Below, piece by piece: positions 1,171 through 57,784 of a stretch of DNA of 64,000 nucleotides (positions are counted from its first letter, which is position 1; each line of letters begins with the position of its first letter). The DNA is taken from the NCBI GenBank assembly GCA_944325195.1, contig CALUZB010000005.1, positions 24,011 to 88,010 on the forward strand. Direction: 5' to 3'. This DNA is from an uncultured Desulfovibrionaceae bacterium (GTDB taxonomy: Bacteria; Desulfobacterota; Desulfovibrionia; Desulfovibrionales; Desulfovibrionaceae). Below the pieces are notes generated by a model that saw nothing but the letters and a program-made list of their open reading frames with translations, made no database searches and had not been told where the DNA came from. The translations under genes were made by a program, and so were the position numbers.

Positions 1171-1365
1171 CAAAATTCCTTTATGGTTTGAGTCTCCCCA
1201 AAAGCGGGAAAGAAACAATTGCCGCGTCGGCTTCCCCGACAGACTCATTTTCTGTAACCCCGCTCAAGGGGCAATCCGCGCACCCCCTATCCCTCGGCTG
1301 CGGGAAGCTCAATTTGCGGCTGGAGCGACTGTGGCCTGAACTATCGTCCTTATCCTTTAAATTAT

Positions 1366-1761
1366 GGAGTCGGGCTGTAAGCCGGGTTCTGTTCCCCGAT
1401 GCCGGGGCGACTGTCATTCCTCTGGCACGACGGTTACCCGCCGCGTCTAGCAACCTACCCGAAAGCTCGGCCGGGCCGACCTTGACGCTTTCCTATTTGG
1501 TCTTGCTCCAAACGGGGTATACCTGGCCTGATTTGTCACCAAACCAGCCGGTGGTCTCTTACACCACCCTTTCACCCTTACCCCGCGGCTGCCTCAAATC
1601 GGAAACAGAAACATCTGCTTCCGGTTCAAAGCGACCGCGGGGCGGTTTGCTTTCTGTTGCACTTGCCGGGAATCACTTCCCCTGGACGTTATCCAGCGTT
1701 TTGCCCTGTGGAGCCCGGACTTTCCTCGACTCACAAAAGCCGCGACAGTCCGCCCGACTCC
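1366..1761 (-). ncRNA. rnpB: RNase P RNA, bacterial type A
   Basis: The minus strand reads GGAGTCGGGCGGAC...GAGGAAAGTCCGGGCTCCACAGGGCA...GGTAAGGGTGAAAGGGTGGTGTAAGAGACCACC...ACAGAACCCGGCTTACAGCCCGACTCC. The universal P4 and J-region motifs are present. P1 is closed by GGAGTCGGGC/GCCCGACTCC. Confidence 0.93.
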
Positions 1762-11422: not shown

Positions 11423-11722
11423 CGGCTTAACCTCTAAAATAAGGCAAATTTGTATGGCTCAGCCCGCGGTCGGCTCTGTCTGCCGATTGAGCAAGCCAAC
11501 CGGCTCCTGTCCCGCATTTTTCCGGGCGCGCTTCCGCCGCCTGCTTCAGCCCATATCGGCAATGACCGGAAAGGGAAAAGACGATGCAGCAAATGTCGCG
11601 GGCTTATTGTTGCCTCGCCTTGTGGACGGAAATTGCGGAAACAGACGTTTCATCGGCTTAAATCCTGTCAACCCATTCTTCCCCTGTTTAGGGCGGTTTC
11701 AGACCATTAGAGGAAAAATTCG

Positions 11723-14284: not shown

Positions 14285-14447
14285 CCCCGGGCTTTTCCCG
14301 AAAGCTGTTTGACCGACTTAAGACGAATTGGCCGGAGGCCGACAGATCGGTCGGAGCGATGTGCGGCAGACGTAACCAGAAACGCCTTTACGGTTTACCA
14401 CCTCTCCCCATACCCCCCAAAAAAACAGAAGGTGATGGGGGTGTTCA

Positions 14448-14616
14448 TCAAAAATTCATTTGCGGTTTGAAACCTCCCGATGATTTGACAAAACTTTGAG
14501 CCGGTAATATCCTTTTGTCCTAACCTCTCGCCTTTCGGGAGAGGCAATCAGCACGCCCCCTATCCGTCGGCGGCTTCAGTCAGTCGGCGGATAGGGGGCG
14601 TGTGGATTGAAACATG
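14448..14616 (-). repeat. Mosaic multi-hairpin repeat, copy A (inverted orientation; lacks one hairpin module)
   Basis: The reverse complement aligns along its whole length with the copies at 20926, 54419 and 57605. The plus strand ends in ...GTCGGCGGATAGGGGGCGTGTGGATTGAAACAT. Confidence 0.9.
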
Positions 14617-14972
14617 CTGTTGGAAAGAAGACCGGACCGCTTCGCTGCTGAAAGCCTTTTTCCGTAAGGGGTAATCCGCCCTTCCCTGTCCCTGTCCGCC
14701 GCCCGGCTTAGGCTACTGCTTACGGACAGACTGATCGGGGGTTGAGACTGCACACTCAGGCCATACAGGACGCTCAACCGGAAACGGAAAGGCGGGCCAA
14801 TCTACTTTGAAAGCGGACTTGCTCCGGGGGCTGTGTAAACTGCTCCCGTACCGAAAAAGCGGGAAACTGCTTCTCCCTGCGAAATGCAAACAGGGCAATG
14901 ATTATTATTGAAAATGTCATTCCCATCTGAAAGCGCCCTGAAAGCAGGTCTGGAGCAACAAGAGGTATTAAG

Positions 14973-20925: not shown

Positions 20926-21106
20926 ATGTTTCAATCCACAGTCGCCCCACCCGCCGACTGACGGAAGCCGCTTACGGATAGGGGCGTGCGGATTACCTCT
21001 CGCCTTTCGGGAGAGGTTACGGCAAAAGGATATTATCGGCTCAAAGCTTTGTCAAATCATCTTTTCCCCCTGAAGGGGGGAGGTTTCAAACCTCAAAGGA
21101 GTTTTT
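20926..21106 (+). repeat. Mosaic multi-hairpin repeat, copy B
   Basis: ATGTTTCAATCCACAGTCGCCCCACCCGCCGAC...CGGATAGGGGCGTGCGGATT, then CCTCTCGCCTTTCGGGAGAGG...TTTGTCAAATCATC...CCCCCTGAAGGGGGG, GAGGTTTCAAACCTC, AAAGGAGTTTTT. Confidence 0.9.
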
Positions 21107-21108
21107 TT

Positions 21109-26523: not shown

Positions 26524-26618
26524 GGAGAGGTAGCGAAGTTGGCCGTAACGCGCCCGACTCGAAATCGGGTTACCGGTGTTGAGCCGGTACGCGGGTTCAA
26601 ATCCCGCCCTCTCCGCCA
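26524..26618 (+). tRNA. tRNA-Ser (anticodon CGA), CCA encoded
   Basis: Acceptor stem GGAGAGG/CCTCTCC. Anticodon stem-loop CCCGA-CTCGAAA-TCGGG. Long variable arm. T-arm GCGGG-TTCAAAT-CCCGC. Discriminator G followed by CCA. Confidence 0.92.
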
Positions 26619-26910
26619 GAAGCAAAAACAACGGTGTGCAGCCTGCTCTGAAAAACCTTGCTGCGCGCCGTTTTTCTGTACCGGCAGACATAGCGCCGTT
26701 GAGGAGTCTTCAGGCCCGCCGCCACTGAGCAGAACAGACGCGTGGCCGGTAGCTGAACCGTCCGAATGACTGTGCCTGTTCCGCCGATTCCGCTGTCCTG
26801 TAACGGATAATCCGGACAGGCGACGGTCATCCCCGGGCTGCACTCCCCCGGGCAGAACGCTCACCTTCAGTTTGAAAAGGTACCTGTTCCAAGCATTATC
26901 CCGCCTTTCA

Positions 26911-26939
26911 TCCAAAATTCCTTTGTAGTTTGAAACCTC
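26911..26939 (-). repeat. Solo fragment of the mosaic repeat (right-end module)
   Basis: TCCAAAATTCCTTTGTAGTTTGAAACCTC matches TCAAAAATTCATTTGCGGTTTGAAACCTC of copy A. Confidence 0.6.
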
Positions 26940-27138
26940 GGCCTTCAGGCCAAGCTTAAGCCCCAGCCCGCGCCAGCACTCAAACCGGGCGCCCGGCCAC
27001 AACCCAAGACTGGAGAATTGCTTGTCAACACTACAGGGACAACACCCGACATTTCCCCCCCCCCTCCAACCGCCAACCTCTGCTCAGCAGCAACCGCCAA
27101 AGCGGATTTCAAAATTCAGTTGACATTCACTTTCAATT

Positions 27139-31004: not shown

Positions 31005-31365
31005 GGGGGCGCCCTGGTTTCGACGGGGGTGCAGAAACCAAAGCGGCAGGTCGAGGCGCCGCTGGCCTCGTAAAAAGCGGCAAAAATGTAATTGCCAACG
31101 ACGATTACGCATACGCTTACGCTGCTTAATTAAGCAACGGGTCCGGGTGAATGACGCCTGATAGTTCAGTCGGATTTTAAAAAATTAATCAGGCTGGCTG
31201 CAACGGGGGCCGGTTGCCGTTGCAGTGAGATTCGACAATCGGCTGGCCGCCGACCGCCCGGTCAGGGGCAAAACCGGCTGCGAGACCTTAAAACCTGACC
31301 TAAACCTGTAGAAGCTTTGCGTGGAGCATTCTCGGACGCGAGTTCGATTCTCGCCGCCTCCACCA
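31005..31365 (+). ncRNA. ssrA: tmRNA (SsrA), tag ANDDYAYAYAA
   Basis: 5' GGGGGCGCCCTGGTTTCGACGGGGG. 3' GGACGCGAGTTCGATTCTCGCCGCCTCCACCA, with a G3:U pair. The tag ORF is GCC AAC GAC GAT TAC GCA TAC GCT TAC GCT GCT TAA at 31094-31129. Confidence 0.95.
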
Positions 31366-32554: not shown

Positions 32555-33633
32555 CTGTCTGGAACACCGCCTGGCTGGGCGACAGTGTGCTCACCCTGCC
32601 CCTGATCGAACTGGTGAAAAACCATTTTCCCAATGCCGCTATCGACTTTTATGTGCGTCAGGGCCTGGGCGGTCTTTTCACCTGTCATCCGGCCATTGCC
32701 CGGGTCTTTGAATTCAATAAGAAACAGCACACCGGCCCGGCTACACTATACCGCTACGGGCGCGGTCTGGCCGCGCGGAAATATTCCATCTGGCTCAGCG
32801 CCCACCGCAGTTGGCGCAGCAGTTTCATTGCCCAACTGGCCAGCGCGCCGATCCGCATCGGCTACAATTCCGGTCCGCTCAGCCGCCTGATTTACACCCA
32901 CACTGTGGAACGGGATTTTTACAAGCTGGCGGAAATCGAGCGCATTCTCAAGCTGGCCGTTCCTCTGGGCATTGAGCTGAACCTGGATACAGATTTGAAC
33001 ATGAACGCCGCCCCCGACAAGTCCAGCCCCGCCCATTGGCCGCATCTGGCGCTCTGCCCGGAAGCGGAAGCAAAAGCGGACGCAATCCGGCAAAGTCTCG
33101 CCCCGGACCGCCCGGTGCTGGGCATTCACCCCGGCGCCGCCTGGCCCACAAAACGCTGGCCCGTGGAAAACGTAATTGCGGTGGCCCGCCTGGCTGCAGC
33201 GCATCAGGTGCAGATCATCCTGTTCGGGGCTCCCGGCGAACAGGTGGAAACGGACGCGGTGAGCGCGGCCATGCAGGATTACCCCGGGTTCATCAATCTG
33301 GCCGGGCAACTCAGCCTGCCCCAACTGGCTGCCTGTCTGGGCCGCCTGGACTGCTTTCTGAGCAACGACTCCGGCCCCATGCACCTGGCCTGGGTGCAGA
33401 ACACCCCGGTAACCGCGGTGTTCGGCCCCACAGTACGCGCGCTGGGCTTCTTCCCGCGCGGGCCGCACAGCACGGTAATTGAAACCAAGCTGTCTTGCCG
33501 CCCCTGTGGGCTGCACGGACACCGTAAATGCCCGAAAGGGCACCACGCCTGTATGCGCAACATCACCCCCCAACAAGTCTGGGCCGATATTGCAAGGAAG
33601 TTGAAACTGGCTGGGAGCACAACGACTTGTTAA
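32545..33633 (+). CDS. Glycosyltransferase family 9 (LPS heptosyltransferase)
   Basis: 362 aa. Sequence: MRIAVWNTAWLGDSVLTLPLI...NDSGPMHLA. It overlaps gmhB by 10 nt. Confidence 0.85.
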   Translation: MRIAVWNTAWLGDSVLTLPLIELVKNHFPNAAIDFYVRQGLGGLFTCHPAIARVFEFNKKQHTGPATLYRYGRGLAARKYSIWLSAHRSWRSSFIAQLASAPIRIGYNSGPLSRLIYTHTVERDFYKLAEIERILKLAVPLGIELNLDTDLNMNAAPDKSSPAHWPHLALCPEAEAKADAIRQSLAPDRPVLGIHPGAAWPTKRWPVENVIAVARLAAAHQVQIILFGAPGEQVETDAVSAAMQDYPGFINLAGQLSLPQLAACLGRLDCFLSNDSGPMHLAWVQNTPVTAVFGPTVRALGFFPRGPHSTVIETKLSCRPCGLHGHRKCPKGHHACMRNITPQQVWADIARKLKLAGSTTTC

Positions 33634-33640
33634 ACTTAGA

Positions 33641-33676
33641 GGCGGTTCCAAAAAACCGTAAAGGATTTTTGATGAA
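33641..33676 (+). repeat. Solo fragment of the mosaic repeat (right-end hairpin + AAAGGATTTTTGATGAA)
   Basis: GGCGGTTCCAAAAAACCGTAAAGGATTTTTGATGAA compares with GCGGTTTCAAACCGCAAAGGAATTTTTGA (copy D) and ...TTTTTGATGAAC (copy A). Confidence 0.55.
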
Positions 33677-35992: not shown

Positions 35993-36025
35993 GGCGCATT
36001 AAAAGTTCATCAGGGCTTGAGGCTT

Positions 36026-36054
36026 TCCCGAAAGGCGGGATTGCGGATTGAAAC
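36026..36054 (-). repeat. Solo CRISPR-repeat-like unit (small hairpin + GCGGATTGAAAC on the plus strand)
   Basis: TCCCGAAAGGCGGGATTGCGGATTGAAAC lies 34 nt after the ilvE stop. It shares GGATTGAAAC with the four full copies. Confidence 0.5.
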
Positions 36055-36909
36055 TTTACTGAACAGCTCCGGCGTCGGAGAGGAAACCCGCTGAGCAGGT
36101 TGAAGCAGCCGGGTTACAGTGTGGCGTTTGCTCGCCCGACGCCCGGAGCCTGATTGGGTAAAGGGACTGACCAGGACAGAGTATTGAACTGCAAACACAA
36201 TGCTCCTGAATTCCAGGGTACACAAGCATGCGCCGCCAAACCCTTCAGGACGGGGTGGGGCTCCATTCGGCCTGAAGGCCGAGCTCTCAGACTCCAAAGA
36301 AATTTTGGATAACGGGTAATGCCTCTCAGAATATTGAATTGCAAATCAAGTCTTTAGACGGACGCCGGGAGTGGATGTAAAAGCGATATCCGGCATCTGA
36401 AACCAAGCCGAAAATGGGATATTGTAAGGCCGGTGAGCTCAATTGTCCGGCGGCGGCTGTAAACAGGCCGGGAAATCGCGGTTTTGGCGGCATGCTTCGC
36501 ATAAATCAACCGGTCTGACCGGGCGTTATGCAATGAGTTACAGGCAGTCGGCGCAATATCGGCCGGAACGTAAGGAAATGGCGGATCTGACCGCCGATCC
36601 GGAGAGTTGAGTCACGTAATATCTGAGCAGAACAGGGCCTGAACCGATCCCGGTAAGCGGTAAAGCGCCCGGATAGTGCGGGCACAGCGACCACCACGAC
36701 CGTTCGCGGTTCAACCTTGCAGCGGAACGAAAAGCAATGCGGCAGCCATGCGGCTGTTTCTCGTTCCGTCTCTGCTGTTCTGACGATGCGCCGGGTTGCC
36801 GGTTATGGTTGTGGCGCCGGTAATGGACAGGTTGTTTCGCGCGGCTGGAATATCGGGCAAACCACTCTGAAAGCATTGAAGGCAGACCTTAGACCTTAAG
36901 GAAGCTCAA

Positions 36910-38312: not shown

Positions 38313-38714
38313 CCGCCCCCAAGGAATACCCCTGAGGACTGTTTGGAGGACTGACTGATAAATTCACATCAAAAATTGCTCACATCTTCCGCTGCTGTTT
38401 TCCTTCCGACTGTCCGTTCTTCCGGGCAGACAACGCCTGATATACTCCGGATTGCTTGTTCCCTCTGTTCTGTTTGTTTCAATCCTTAATCCGCCTGTCC
38501 GTCTGCTTGCGCCGTAACTGCCGGACAGAGTTTGCGGGCTTGCCCCCGCATTTCGGAAAGAGTCAAGGAAAACAATTTCCTCAATTTCGCCGCTTTCTCA
38601 ATGACTTTCTTCACTTCAAGGAGTGAGTTGCAACCCCAAGAGGAGTTCCGGGAAACAGATAATCACCTGTAAGCACCCAGCCAAGGCGCCCTCTCCAACA
38701 CCTGTTCCTGCAGC

Positions 38715-54418: not shown

Positions 54419-54602
54419 ATGTTTCAATCCACAGTCGTCCCCAGCCGCCGACTGACTCTCGCGCGCGGCGGACAGGGGGCGTGCGGATTGCCTCTCCCTC
54501 AAGGGGGAGGTTACAAAAAAAGATTTCATCGGCTGCGCCGTATTGTCAAGAACTTTTTCCCGCCTTTCGGAGGCGGTTTTAAACCATAAAGGAATGTTTG
54601 AT
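54419..54602 (+). repeat. Mosaic multi-hairpin repeat, copy C (most diverged; overlaps the ribE 3' end)
   Basis: ATGTTTCAATCCACAGTCGTCCCCAGCCGCCGAC...GGACAGGGGGCGTGCGGATTG, then CCTCTCCCTCAAGGGGGAGG...TTGTCAAGAAC...CCGCCTTTCGGAGGCGG...AAAGGAATGTTTGA. Confidence 0.85.
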
Positions 54603-55289
54603 AAAAAAGTCCGGACCAAGCCCCGTCCCTCTGCTTTCAGCACTGCCCTGAGCCCGGCCGCTGCCCGGCCCGGCCGCCGGATCCGCCTGATGCAGGCGAA
54701 GCATTTTCGCCACATACTTGCCCAGCAAATCCACTTCCAGATTAGCGGCATGGCCCGGGCGCCAGAAACGGGCGGTTGTGGCACTCCAGGTTGCGGGAAT
54801 AAGGTTCAGCTCAAAATAACCGGGGCCGCAGGCGTTGACCGTAAGACTGATTCCATCCACACAAACAGAGCCCTTGTTCACAATGTACATATCCAGGGCC
54901 GGGTCACAGGCGAATCGAACCAGATGTGAAGCGGAGCGGTTTTCCAGGCGACTTACTTCCGCCAGACCGTCCACATGCCCACTGACAATATGCCCGCCCA
55001 GACGCTGCCCCAAGCACAGGGCCGGCTCAAGATTCACCCTGCTGCCGGGGGTCAGTCGGCCCAGAGTGGTGTTGCTTAGAGTTTCCTCGGAAGCATAAGC
55101 GCTGAAAGCCAGAGTAGTGCCGATGAAGCGGGTTTTTTCAGCGGTGAGACACACCCCGTTCACGGCCACGCTGTCGCCGGGCAACACCGCGTCCGCCGCC
55201 AGAGGGGCATTGATTTCCAGGCGCAAATCCCGCGCCTGCCTGGAAACTTCCTTAACCACGCCTAGCGCGGCAACCAGCCCTGTAAACAT
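54579..55289 (-). CDS. ribE: Riboflavin synthase alpha chain, with an atypical C-terminal tail of about 30 aa
   Basis: Sequence: MFTGLVAALGVVKEV...SVAVNGVCLT...VNLE...GHIVSGHVDG. The last 8 codons and the stop lie inside repeat copy C. Confidence 0.92.
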   Translation of the reverse strand: MFTGLVAALGVVKEVSRQARDLRLEINAPLAADAVLPGDSVAVNGVCLTAEKTRFIGTTLAFSAYASEETLSNTTLGRLTPGSRVNLEPALCLGQRLGGHIVSGHVDGLAEVSRLENRSASHLVRFACDPALDMYIVNKGSVCVDGISLTVNACGPGYFELNLIPATWSATTARFWRPGHAANLEVDLLGKYVAKMLRLHQADPAAGPGSGRAQGSAESRGTGLGPDFFIKHSFMV

Positions 55290-57604: not shown

Positions 57605-57784
57605 ATGTTTCAATCCACAGTCGCCCCACCCGCCGCCCGCCTCTCGCCGCGGACGGATAGGGGGCGTGCGGATTGCCTCTCGCCTTTCGGGAGAGGTTAC
57701 GACAAAAGGATAGGCTTCACCGTTTTGTCAAATCATCTTTTCCCCCTGAAGGGAGCGGTTTCAAACCGCAAAGGAATTTTTGAG
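57605..57784 (+). repeat. Mosaic multi-hairpin repeat, copy D
   Basis: ATGTTTCAATCCACAGTCGCCCCACCCGCCG...CGGATAGGGGGCGTGCGGATTG, then CCTCTCGCCTTTCGGGAGAGG...TTTGTCAAATCATC, CCCCCTGAAGGGAG, GCGGTTTCAAACCGC, AAAGGAATTTTTGA. Confidence 0.9.

Follow-up and report, generated by a model that had tools for sequence, protein, structure and literature searches.

A type I-C CRISPR repeat-like unit at the right end of a gene-less mobile element in Desulfovibrionaceae

The segment at 14546-14613 of the window, that is, of the whole 64-kb stretch of DNA analysed here, is, with good support, the right end of a non-coding mobile element of ~170-185 bp, and it is likewise well supported that the last ~35 nt of this element make up a type I-C CRISPR repeat-like unit in which a hairpin is followed by an 11-nt handle. 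The element is abundant, and Mailhella-like Desulfovibrionaceae (relatives of gut sulfate reducers) and their phages are well supported as its hosts. Judged by sequence, there is also good support for homology between its terminal unit and the solitary repeat units of related phages. Tentatively, we propose that in this gene-less family with a repeat-mimicking end each insertion would turn the neighbouring DNA into a crRNA spacer and would thereby conscript Cascade-Cas3. The initial annotation had offered three readings of the segment, an orphan repeat acting as a Cas-binding RNA, a repeat-derived MITE or convergence; a MITE that carries the repeat fits best, with the correction that the unit is not an isolated RNA gene but the terminal ~35 nt of a transposon-like element.

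Anatomy and distribution of the element

The right-end 12-mer GTGGATTGAAAC terminates four intact copies in the window and is present as variants in two degenerate copies (Table 1). Counted over the window, it occurs four times exactly and once with one mismatch, against 0.21 occurrences expected in shuffled sequences, and none of 100 shuffles reached five. The earlier expectation that other copies would conserve the 12-mer was confirmed, copies B, C and D ending the same way. The boundaries (TTCAT/CAAAA…GGATTGAAACAT/, slashes marking the junctions) were sharp in an alignment of 35 copies. Read on the strand of copy A, the order of parts is TTCAT/CAAAAATTCCTTTGTGGTTTGAAACC, the P1 hairpin, a TTGACA promoter-like site, GTAACC, P2, GGCAATCCGC, the long P3 stem and GT CAGTCG-loop-CGACTG TGGATTGAAAC AT, after which the flank begins. 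GGATTGAAAC is present in 34 of the 35 aligned copies, including all intact ones, the exception being the degenerate copy E with GGCCTGAAC. P2 (helix 3) was paired in 96.6% of alignment cells with compensatory changes in two pairs, and in a GC-rich subfamily it reads CCCGCCG/CGGCGGG. A promoter inside the element is predicted from its match to the consensus; copy B has the same promoter-like site as copy A and TTGACA is kept in nearly all of the 35 aligned copies, the -10 being weak in most copies.

Table 1 Copies and parts of the element in the window
Feature	Position	Strand	Remark
Target motif TTCAT, left of copy A, outside the element	14444..14448	+	Reverse complement of ATGAA
Copy A, 167 bp, without P1 hairpin	14449..14615	+	nhmmer E = 2.8e-53; covariance model 78 bits
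Predicted sigma-70-like promoter TTGACA-17-TATCCT, toward right end	14485..14513	+	10/12 consensus matches
P2 hairpin (CCTCTC…GAGAGG), conserved (G/C)TAACC just before	14524..14544	+	Helix 3
5' arm of P3 stem, including 'anti-handle' CAATC(A/C)GC pairing with GTGGATTG	14545..14566	+	Helices 4-6
Type I-C repeat-like unit	14581..14613	+	Most copies: GT-CAGTCG-loop-CGACTG-TGGATTGAAAC
11-nt handle TGGATTGAAAC	14603..14613	+	Same as 3' 11 nt of real type I-C repeats
Terminal AT (…AACAT/)	14614..14615	+	Conservation ends; variable flank from 14616
Copy B	20926..21108	-	Left end abuts start codon (21109) of YgiW/BOF-family gene
Copy C, ribE/ribBA intergenic	54419..54600	-	Target motif TTTAT (54601-54605)
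Copy D, glyA/dCMP deaminase gene intergenic	57605..57782	-	Target motif decayed to TTGCT
Copy E, degenerate, end GTGGCCTGAACTAT	1171..1344	+	51 bits
Copy F, strongly diverged	38474..38646	-	27.6 bits
Minimal derivative TTCAT/CAGGGC… small hairpin … GCGGATTGAAAC	36006..36054	+	Direct reading of sequence
Copy G, decayed, left-end module retained	11534..11716	-	SD and ATG of ybgF-like gene (11723) come from module
Left-end-only module (SD, GGTTTCAAAC and hairpin, opposite-strand reading)	26908..26950	+	
Module similar to that at 26908-26950	36263-36312	-	
Module similar to that at 26908-26950	33618-33675	-	

The ribE reading frame terminates within copy C. The left end of copy E abuts the ATG of a minus-strand gene, and RNase P RNA adjoins this copy. 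Copy F has retained GGATTGAAAC together with a stem of different sequence (CTGTCCG/CGGACAG). No protein gene was found within or adjoining any copy, and the copies contain no ORFs. Terminal inverted repeats were found neither in the 35-copy alignment nor by comparison of filled with empty phage sites; therefore, a classical MITE with inverted termini and duplication was rejected.

Outside the window, 40 more copies were found in MAGs of Mailhella/Desulfovibrionaceae and 47 loci in gut metagenomes, and copies are present in the phage contigs L063, L064, L113, L116, L117 and L120; the distinct insertion sites number 70. Mailhella massiliensis and its relatives are among the carriers, with JAVBLG01, JAEXGX01, CAKTDV01, CAJTSU01, DXIB01, JAFTCE01 and JAITGC01. 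Of the eight genome matches that belong neither to the Desulfovibrionaceae nor to a 'Methylococcus' MAG, seven (Oscillospiraceae, Alkalispirochaeta, Dehalococcoidia, Chloroflexi, Bacteroidales and Prevotella) fell below the model threshold and were discarded as chance pattern matches; the eighth is L031. Searched by blastn, the plasmid and phage collections of GenBank gave no match to the element. At the strain level, every contig around copies A and D of the window either has the element or breaks inside it. The element fragments metagenome assemblies of gut Desulfovibrionaceae and produces chimeric joins.

Three other identities were rejected. Within the window Rfam recognised no families but RNase P, tmRNA and tRNA, and it gave no meaningful match on the element itself, which speaks against a known RNA family. 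A conserved leader peptide (MFQST…, starting from the ATG of …GAAACAT read backwards) was dismissed because its frame varies between genomes. Integron attC sites have the core sites RYYYAAC/GTTRRRY, which do not fit.

Insertion site and mode of transposition

Insertions are placed directly 3' of TTCAT, and on the opposite strand this pentamer often represents a start codon (ATGAA). The pentamer is present at 39 of 48 scorable insertion sites, and AT ends the element at 65 of the 70 sites. Real gene starts account for about half of the left flanks, and the left end carries its own Shine-Dalgarno at the right distance for the start codon that it abuts; when the right flank was read as its reverse complement, an SD-like motif was present at 24% of sites, compared to 8% of random CAT sites. 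Two sites turned up empty, both with TTCAT. The first is in phage L127, which reads GCTGACTTCAT/GTAGGAGGTGACACC, and the near-identical L120, L117 and L113 are filled at exactly that point. The second is the start of a ttcA-like gene (ATGAAATG), empty in L037 and filled in L005. The target site had gone unnoticed in the initial annotation.

The target site, the lack of inverted repeats and the features of the left end with its SD point, on the anatomy of the element, to a non-autonomous member of the IS200/IS605 type ('peel and paste', PATE-like) whose transposase is encoded elsewhere. Indeed, a target motif (TAM) is accompanied by a related motif at the right end (TEM), and subterminal hairpins are found on the top strand, P1 being close to the left end while P2 and P3 belong to the right one; on the strand of copy A, G.U pairs outnumber A.C pairs by 99 to 19, with 96% of alignment cells paired. 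TTCAT and TTTAT are both published TAMs of IS200/IS605 elements, TTCAT being that of ISGst5, and gene-less PATEs with guide RNAs are known (Meers et al. 2023, 10.1101/2023.03.14.532601). CAT is common to both junctions, which fits no duplication as well as a 3-bp duplication, and a 3-bp duplication of CAT is conceivable as an alternative to the IS200/IS605 mechanism. With IS200 and IS608 TnpA sequences as queries, tblastn gave no match to a Y1 transposase in 0.77 Mb. A weak match to a candidate autonomous partner turned out to be glmM, and L018 contains carAB-type genes only; both were rejected.

The repeat-like unit and its relatives in phages

The handle UGGAUUGAAAC is identical to that of the type I-C repeats of Xanthomonas, of D. 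vulgaris pDV1 and of an array from gut Desulfovibrionaceae, and it is identical in copies A-D and at nearly all of the 70 sites. A 6-bp hairpin, CAGTCG/CGACTG, directly abuts the handle in the same register as in the D. vulgaris repeat; it was 94.6% paired, with compensatory changes in three of six pairs and a covariation score that was reached by none of 500 shuffles. Both the identity of the handle with real type I-C repeats and the covarying hairpin that ends where the handle starts bear out the repeat anatomy put forward in the initial annotation. Also the sequence given for 14583-14613 (+), GTCGGCGGATAGGGGGCGTGTGGATTGAAAC, and the upstream arm 14546-14566, AATCAGCACGCCCCCTATCCG, were as described, and RNA folding confirmed that the two pair. 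The reading quoted for the other copies was exact for copy B; copy C has one extra base and copy D has GGGCGG instead of AGTCGG, so that the 5' GTCG is not universal. The statement that the internal hairpin is absent was wrong for the family: most copies have CAGTCG-loop-CGACTG, and it was missed because copy A, the exception, lacks it. Where most copies have CGACTG as the 3' strand of this hairpin, copy A has GGCGTG, and its long P3 stem stops at the handle.

The type I-C resemblance is not due to chance. A chance or convergent origin, with the 12-mer kept only for pairing with CAATCCGC and for its position at the cleavage site, was already disfavoured and is hardly credible: the hairpin stands in the exact type I-C register and covaries, solitary units of phages are 27/31 identical to the unit of the element, and TTC occurs in register twice, independently. 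What speaks for it is that the unit has little sequence in common with canonical type I-C repeats beyond the 12-mer and the position of the hairpin, and that the CRISPR-DR models of Rfam gave no match on copy A even at E <= 10; true type I-C units from L045 and L031, the positive controls, gave weak matches to CRISPR-DR9/10.

The phage units, of which L118 and L119 contain textbook examples, come with a promoter, a spacer-like stretch of 17-23 nt and a terminator, and with no other part of the element; in L112/L115 two units lie 64 nt apart. Only the 35-nt type I-C-like module is common to them and the element, the upstream RNAs of the phages being unrelated. A search for the target of the L119 unit gave only chance 17-mer matches. 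At a phage sRNA locus, alleles with the repeat read …GAAAC/CTGGTGAGCC… and alleles without it …GCGTTC/CTGGTGAGCC…, which is a second, independent case of TTC in register. A canonical type I-C solitary repeat is present in the related MAG L045, and an exact search for this repeat in viral contigs gave none.

The window has no array periodicity and no cas gene, as the initial annotation had stated. Regularly spaced repeats with unique spacers were found neither there nor in any fetched locus, the copies being kilobases apart, and tblastn with seven type I-C Cas proteins of D. vulgaris gave no match in the window or in 0.94 Mb of fetched loci. One fetched type I-C locus (L131-L134) has no copy of the element, and its spacers match none of the fetched phages. 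A search for Cas7c homologues was saturated, with at least 8000 matches.

The RNA of 14515-14620 folds with -65.4 kcal/mol (z = -8.5 compared to shuffles). In the most stable fold the handle is paired with the anti-handle and ~13 kcal/mol are needed to free it, so that Cas5c should be hindered. This cis 'anti-repeat' probably acts in transposition, as the DNA hairpin of the right end, and may also restrain the RNA. The element could carry transposition signals only, its hairpins and conserved single-stranded motifs being read by a Y1 (HUH) transposase on single-stranded DNA; the unit would then have no present Cas role and be left over from a solitary repeat that was captured, or the phages would have taken their units from it. 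The IS200/IS605 anatomy (target pentamer, similar terminal pentamer, top-strand hairpins, no inverted termini), a P3 stem far more stable than the small hairpin and the lack of cas genes in the window and the 0.94 Mb are in line with this explanation, yet we consider it unlikely, since the small hairpin keeps covarying though the long fold leaves its 3' strand unpaired, the 31-35 nt unit is an RNA gene module in phages without the rest of the element, and the identity of the handle with type I-C repeats in 11 of 11 positions is left unexplained.

The P2-P3 RNA could also be a short ωRNA for a TnpB acting in trans, with TTCAT as TAM and the flank as guide. The geometry is that of TnpB elements, and PATEs with ωRNAs are known, but tnpB adjoins none of >100 copies, Rfam gave no match, and it is only the type I-C-like module that recurs in the phage units, behind different upstream RNAs. 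Moreover, a scaffold of ~95 nt is short for a TnpB ωRNA, and we regard this explanation as very improbable.

Possible use of the host Cascade and relation to known systems

We infer a Cas-dependent role for the unit of the element, and the most specific functional lead is the target site TTCAT, because its TTC is the type I-C PAM in the right register. An RNA that runs out of the element would read handle, AU and flank, and the empty site reads TTC, AT and flank. In type I-C systems the PAM is 5'-TTC directly upstream of the protospacer, and for crRNA-like RNAs (crlRNAs) one 5' repeat-like unit suffices to give a Cascade-loaded RNA, which is trimmed at its 3' end and has targets with this PAM (bioRxiv 10.1101/2024.12.27.630466). 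Since insertion occurs after TTC-AT and the element ends in …GAAAC-AT, PAM and protospacer come together only on the element-free allele. TT-rich target motifs are common in IS200/IS605 elements, which makes the TTC in the target weaker evidence than 1/64 suggests.

From this geometry, we give only slightly less than an even chance to the idea that the element borrows the type I-C Cascade of its host against its own empty site, as TnpB ωRNAs do. The internal promoter would give a transcript through the repeat-like unit into the adjoining DNA, Cas5c of the host would cleave 5' of UGGAUUGAAAC, and Cascade would be loaded with an RNA whose 'spacer' is AU plus flank. An element-free locus, TTC-AT-flank, would then present a type I-C PAM followed by a perfect protospacer, and the occupied locus would be spared, as AAC, the end of the repeat, would stand in the PAM position. 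By attacking empty or excised sites, Cascade-Cas3 of the host would enforce retention and favour the conversion of element-free alleles, and element-free competitor phages would be targets as well. The system would be a type I counterpart of the TnpB/IscB ωRNAs in IS200/IS605 elements.

The unit could instead be a Racr-like RNA decoy whose many copies soak up Cas5c/Cas7c by repeat mimicry and blunt type I-C immunity to the benefit of phages and other mobile DNA with the element, the flank being irrelevant. A type I-C RNA anti-CRISPR, RacrIC1, has been validated experimentally, and 82.9% of the solitary repeat units of prophages have a cas operon of the matching subtype in their host (Camara-Wilpert et al. 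2023, PMC10651486). Like Racrs and solitary repeat units, the unit described here is a single type I-C-like repeat mimic on mobile DNA, has a promoter-like site upstream and does not lie beside cas genes, and the element is present in several phage contigs. Unlike Racrs, it forms the end of a transposon-like element that is present in many chromosomal copies, variable host DNA replaces the terminator that follows the phage units, the anti-handle pairs in cis and a PAM-bearing target motif lies at the other end. A decoy needs neither an exact placement at the boundary of the element nor a target motif that gives TTC in register, what a decoy must expose is just what the anti-handle sequesters, and dozens of chromosomal copies would leave the host's own system permanently disabled; a decoy function is, therefore, doubtful.

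If Cascade is borrowed, the unit would resemble the type I-C crlRNA/CreR type, which also has one repeat-like unit with the hairpin directly 5' of an 11-nt handle. The crlRNAs lie inside cas operons and match promoters partially, which leads to repression without cleavage (bioRxiv 10.1101/2024.12.27.630466), whereas the units of the element are scattered genome-wide, away from cas genes, and the predicted match to the empty site is full-length. With the TnpB/IscB-containing IS200/IS605 elements and PATEs the element has in common the insertion 3' of a pentamer, the lack of inverted termini and the top-strand hairpins, and, as proposed, an RNA that leaves the right end with the flank as guide and the donor joint (TAM and flank) as target. 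Unlike these, it has neither a nuclease gene nor an ωRNA-like scaffold, the module next to the guide is a type I (Cascade) repeat, and the nuclease would be the CRISPR system of the host and not a transposon protein. Virus-borne mini-CRISPR arrays, as summarised in PMC10651486 from Medvedeva et al. 2019, rely on host Cas proteins and target related phages in virus-virus conflicts. The L112/L115/L118 locus and its L064/L122/L125 alleles are similar to that, but the spacer of the element is not acquired; it is the DNA beside the insertion. Correia, ERIC and REPIN sequences (MITE/REP-type) are short, structured, high-copy intergenic repeats that can carry promoters. Like them, the element is more alike within than between genomes and breaks assemblies, but it has no terminal inverted repeats, an asymmetric pentamer as target, often a start codon, a built-in SD and a CRISPR-repeat-like end.

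To our knowledge, solitary CRISPR repeats are so far known as decoys of phages and plasmids and as regulators inside cas operons, and RNA-guided self-preservation of transposons only where the element encodes its own nuclease (TnpB/IscB). If the proposal is true, the element would be an RNA-guided 'homing/retention' drive without an element-encoded nuclease and the first analogue of the TnpB/IscB ωRNA strategy with a type I, multi-subunit effector. It would join the fields of solitary repeats and transposon guides and reveal a new way for selfish DNA to exploit immunity, with a design that amounts to a minimal recipe for type I-C guides that program themselves. Moreover, it would be a natural case of a transposon end that is a CRISPR repeat, which bears on the origin of repeats and guide RNAs, and it would account for the persistence of the element at dozens of start codons.

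Right end of the element and its likeness to type I-C repeats

In copy A of the element, a non-coding mobile repeat of ~170-185 bp, the sequences read by the initial annotation at 14583-14613 (+) (GTCGGCGGATAGGGGGCGTGTGGATTGAAAC) and 14546-14566 (AATCAGCACGCCCCCTATCCG) were found as described, confirming the observation. The repeat/anti-repeat pairing proposed there was borne out by a long stem between the two arms, and 14515-14620 folds at -65.4 kcal/mol (z = -8.5). As the annotation had noted, the window contained neither a periodic array nor a cas gene (the D. vulgaris I-C Cas proteins have no homologue in it), and tblastn with these proteins gave no hit in 0.94 Mb of fetched sequence either. 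Its interpretation of the site is partly supported. The 12-mer GTGGATTGAAAC has four exact occurrences in the window and a fifth with one mismatch, where 0.21 would be expected, and every exact site is the end of a copy of one repeat family. A profile of the four copies A-D, used for searching the window, matched two diverged full copies, E and F, as well as a decayed copy G and several left-end-only fragments; a covariance model of the right half found six right ends in the 64 kb. Degenerate copy E immediately adjoins the RNase P gene.

The hairpin P2 and the long stem P3 of the right end are supported by RNAalifold and pair counts (96% of cells paired, some compensatory changes), and both are kept with different sequence in a GC-rich subfamily (L032, L063). 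In P3, the 12-mer bases GTGGATTG pair with CAATCCGC, the 'anti-repeat'. In an alternative pairing exclusive of P3, CAGTCG pairs with CGACTG across a loop of 10-13 nt, and this small hairpin ends precisely at the start of the 11-nt handle TGGATTGAAAC. The small hairpin had been reported as absent, and copy A has indeed lost it, but this is wrong for the family, in which 94.6% of its cells are paired. Compensatory double changes affect three of the six pairs (CGCCCG/CGGGCG in L032, CGGTCG/CGGCCG in L036, CAATTG/CGATTG in the L027 group), and the covariation score of the hairpin was reached by 0 of 500 shuffles. Since its 3' strand is unpaired in the long fold, this covariation would be hard to explain without selection on the small hairpin itself. 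In copy A, it is the long stem that runs up to the handle (GGGGGCGTG, then TGGATTGAAAC; in D. vulgaris GGGGGCG, then TGGATTGAAAC).

The I-C repeats of Xanthomonas (GTCGCGTCCTCACGGGCGCGTGGATTGAAAC), D. vulgaris pDV1 (GTCGCCCCCCACGCGGGGGCGTGGATTGAAAC, 25/28 copies) and a gut Desulfovibrionaceae array (GTCGCGCCCTTCACGGGCGCGTGGATTGAAAC) all have a 7-bp hairpin ending at G21, followed by the 11-nt handle. The terminal unit of the element, GT-CAGTCG-loop-CGACTG-TGGATTGAAAC, follows the same plan with an identical handle. Rfam CRISPR-DR models did not match the element unit and matched true units weakly, so similarity beyond the handle is low. The strongest evidence for I-C likeness is homology with units of related phages, of which that in L118 (GTCAGTCGGCGAACGCGGCGACTG, then TGGATTGAAAC) is identical to copy B in 27/31 positions. 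From these comparisons we conclude that the resemblance is real and the I-C-like identity of the right end well supported; against the covarying hairpin in I-C register and the phage homology, chance resemblance is most improbable, the low similarity beyond the handle notwithstanding.

A canonical-looking I-C-type unit (GTACTCCGGAAATACCGGACGTGGATTGAAAC) lies between rpsJ and rplC in a Lachnospiraceae MAG (L031); it is preceded by GTAACC, enclosed by an anti-handle 13-mer (GGCAATCCGCACG) identical to that of the element, and scores 33 bits with the element right-end model. Either distant kinship across phyla or convergence would account for it. In a gut Desulfovibrionaceae I-C locus (L131), which has no element copy, another repeat-like unit (TTTAGTCGTTCAGCATGGACGCGGATTGAAAT) was found between cas3 and cas5c, where crRNA-like regulators of I-C operons have been described.

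Solitary repeat units in phages and relatives

Downstream of the L118 unit come 23 nt and an intrinsic terminator. The L119 unit (CAGTCGCATTTTGCGACTG, then TGGATTGAAAC) has a TTGACA-17-TACAAT promoter upstream and, after 17 nt, a terminator downstream, and L112 and L115 have two units each, 64 nt apart. Units of this kind are textbook cases of the solitary repeat unit. The repeat module is all that is shared, since the RNAs upstream of it are related neither among themselves nor to the element. L117 and L118 are the same phage contig, so that element and solitary unit occur together, which ties these phages to the hosts of the element.

Two alleles of the phage small-RNA gene were seen, with CTGGTGAGCCACACC preceded either by the I-C-like repeat (ending GAAAC) or, in the repeat-less L064, L122 and L125, by GCGTTC. 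The GCGTTC allele supplies the TTC PAM for the guide of the repeat allele, which, judged from sequence, suggests phage-versus-phage targeting via the host I-C system.

In a related MAG (L045), 2.2 kb from an element copy and amid small phage-like genes of a prophage-like region, a canonical I-C repeat of 32 nt (GTCGCACCCCACGCGGGTGCGTGGATTGAAAC) stands alone ahead of a terminator-like hairpin; it resembles solitary repeat units of the Racr type (Racr, RNA anti-CRISPR). For 82.9% of prophage solitary repeat units, a host cas operon of matching subtype was reported (PMC10651486). A Racr-like decoy is conceivable for the element itself but unlikely; the PAM arrangement at its insertion sites would rather suit use of Cascade-Cas3.

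Features in the window and in fetched loci
Feature	Source	Position (strand)	Remark
Copy E	window	1171-1344	profile match, diverged full copy
RNase P RNA	window	1362-1761 (-)	class A, ~42-nt insertion in one helix
tRNA-Ser	window	26524-26618 (+)	
Left-end-module leader	window	26908-26950 (+)	
tmRNA	window	31005-31365 (+)	tag ANDDYAYAYAA
Left-end-module leader	window	33618-33675 (-)	
Minimal derivative	window	36006-36054	~50 bp
Left-end-module leader	window	36263-36312 (-)	
Copy F	window	38474-38646	profile match, diverged full copy
ribE end in copy C	window	54579-54600	
GC-rich subfamily	L063	8474-8650	viral contig
GC-rich subfamily	L032	6846-7019	
Phage small-RNA locus	L118	1880-1960	
Phage small-RNA locus	L064	2230-2310	
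Phage small-RNA locus	L112, L115		two units each
Phage small-RNA locus	L122, L125		
Lone I-C repeat	L045	4143-4216	JAEYDL010000035.1
I-C-type unit	L031	4805-4886 (-)	
Repeat-like unit	L131	1379-1410	
~155-bp palindromic family	L043	4380-4532	MAG JAVBLG01
~155-bp palindromic family	L017	4640-4793	MAG JAVBLG01
~155-bp palindromic family	L023	5402-5554	MAG JAVBLG01
~155-bp palindromic family	L019	1105-1233	MAG JAVBLG01

Distribution, insertion sites and mobility

Scanning one genome per species for the pattern gave 48 stretches, 40 from Mailhella, 'Desulfovibrio sp.' or Desulfovibrionaceae MAGs of gut and rumen and one (L032) from a MAG labelled Methylococcus; except for L031, the rest were chance matches. 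A metagenome scan added 47 loci, mostly from human gut, and viral scans revealed copies in phage contigs. The GC-rich subfamily lies outside Desulfovibrionaceae and ends in GCGGATTGAAACAT, a G.U pair of the anti-handle helix being G-C there; one copy is at the start codon of a P2-like tail gene adjoining a tape-measure gene. A second repeat family, unrelated to the element and self-matching in both orientations, lies near element copies in MAG JAVBLG01. The organism of the window is known from metagenome contigs only, typically broken within the element. L001-L003 begin inside the element, metagenome contigs start or end there, and one left flank is joined by assembly to three distinct right flanks (L072/L087/L104, L080 and L108). 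The repeat thus causes assembly breaks and chimeric joins.

In a 35-copy alignment, conservation begins sharply between TTCAT and CAAAA and ends sharply after GAAACAT. Among 70 distinct insertion sites, 48 could be scored for the left flank, and in 39 of these the adjoining pentamer is TTCAT; the element ends in AACAT at 65 of the 70 and has no terminal inverted repeats. TTCAT is the reverse complement of ATGAA, and roughly one left flank in two is a genuine gene start (e.g., a YgiW-like gene at copy B and a ybgF-like gene at copy G). On the gene strand, the left end reads GGTTTCAAACCnCAAAGGAATTTTTG directly before ATG and supplies a correctly spaced Shine-Dalgarno (SD) sequence. A displaced native SD was found in the right flank on the gene strand at 24% of sites, compared to 8% at random CAT sites, and at ~45% where a gene follows, by hand count over the insertion sites.

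Two empty sites fix the insertion point. A ttcA-like gene starts ATGAAATG in L037, which lacks the element, and in L005, where the element sits between native leader and ATG. Among near-identical phages, L127 reads GCTGACTTCAT directly followed by GTAGGAGGTGACACC, and L120, L117 and L113 carry the element at exactly this point, each with different deletions. Therefore, from empty sites and phage copies, the element is mobile and recently active and passes between chromosomes and phages; its mobile nature is secure. The ribE (riboflavin synthase) frame enters copy C and stops inside it, so that the last few codons are element-derived. Some genes have the left-end module alone as 5' leader (small hairpin, GGTTTCAAAC, SD, ATG); these are probably decayed insertions with the SD retained by selection.

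Like IS200/IS605 elements and their gene-less derivatives (PATEs), the element has an asymmetric target pentamer, a related terminal pentamer and hairpins near both ends, and lacks inverted termini; TTCAT and TTTAT are published IS200/IS605 target motifs. G.U pairs exceed A.C pairs on one strand (99 vs 19), which fits folding as a single strand. From these likenesses we infer an IS200/IS605-type (PATE-like) element; no transposase was found by tblastn with approximate IS200/IS608 TnpA queries in 0.77 Mb of loci, and the CAT common to both junctions is compatible with a 3-bp duplication.

A proposed use of the host I-C system

Copies A and B contain TTGACA-17-TATCCT, a consensus match of the sigma-70 type; directed towards the flank, this putative promoter would read through P2, P3 and the repeat-like unit into neighbouring sequence. 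Cas5c cuts 5' of the handle in I-C crRNA-like RNAs with one repeat-like unit (10.1101/2024.12.27.630466); here, such a cut would yield UGGAUUGAAAC + AU + flank. The I-C PAM is 5'-TTC immediately upstream of the protospacer. An empty site reads TTC-AT-flank, as in L127 (TTC, then ATGTAGGAGGTGACACC), i.e. PAM plus perfect protospacer, and an occupied site has AAC at the PAM position; the same PAM logic recurs independently in the GAAAC and GCGTTC alleles of the phage small-RNA locus.

Against use of Cascade stand the sequestration of the handle in the most stable fold of the full right-end RNA (-60.4 vs -47.7 kcal/mol with the handle forced free), the promoter being a mere consensus match, and the frequency of TT-rich target motifs in the IS200/IS605 family. 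A pure transposition signal or relic, which the anatomy would fit, is unlikely given the covarying small hairpin, the phage units that consist of the repeat module without the rest of the element, and the identical handle. TnpB/IscB ωRNAs target the IS200/IS605 donor joint with the same geometry (Meers et al. 2023, 10.1101/2023.03.14.532601), which in the element is made up with a type I repeat and without an element-encoded nuclease. A TnpB ωRNA is very unlikely.

The separate parts, i.e. solitary repeat units, PATE-like elements and flank-derived guides, are already known kinds. In the literature searched, no example was found of their combination, in which a high-copy element that targets start codons and carries an SD has a repeat mimic for its terminal module and a PAM within its target motif. 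Based on PAM and protospacer at the empty site, AAC at the occupied site and the phage parallel, we propose, as a plausible function, that the element may turn the host I-C Cascade-Cas3 on its own empty sites and on element-free competitor phages.
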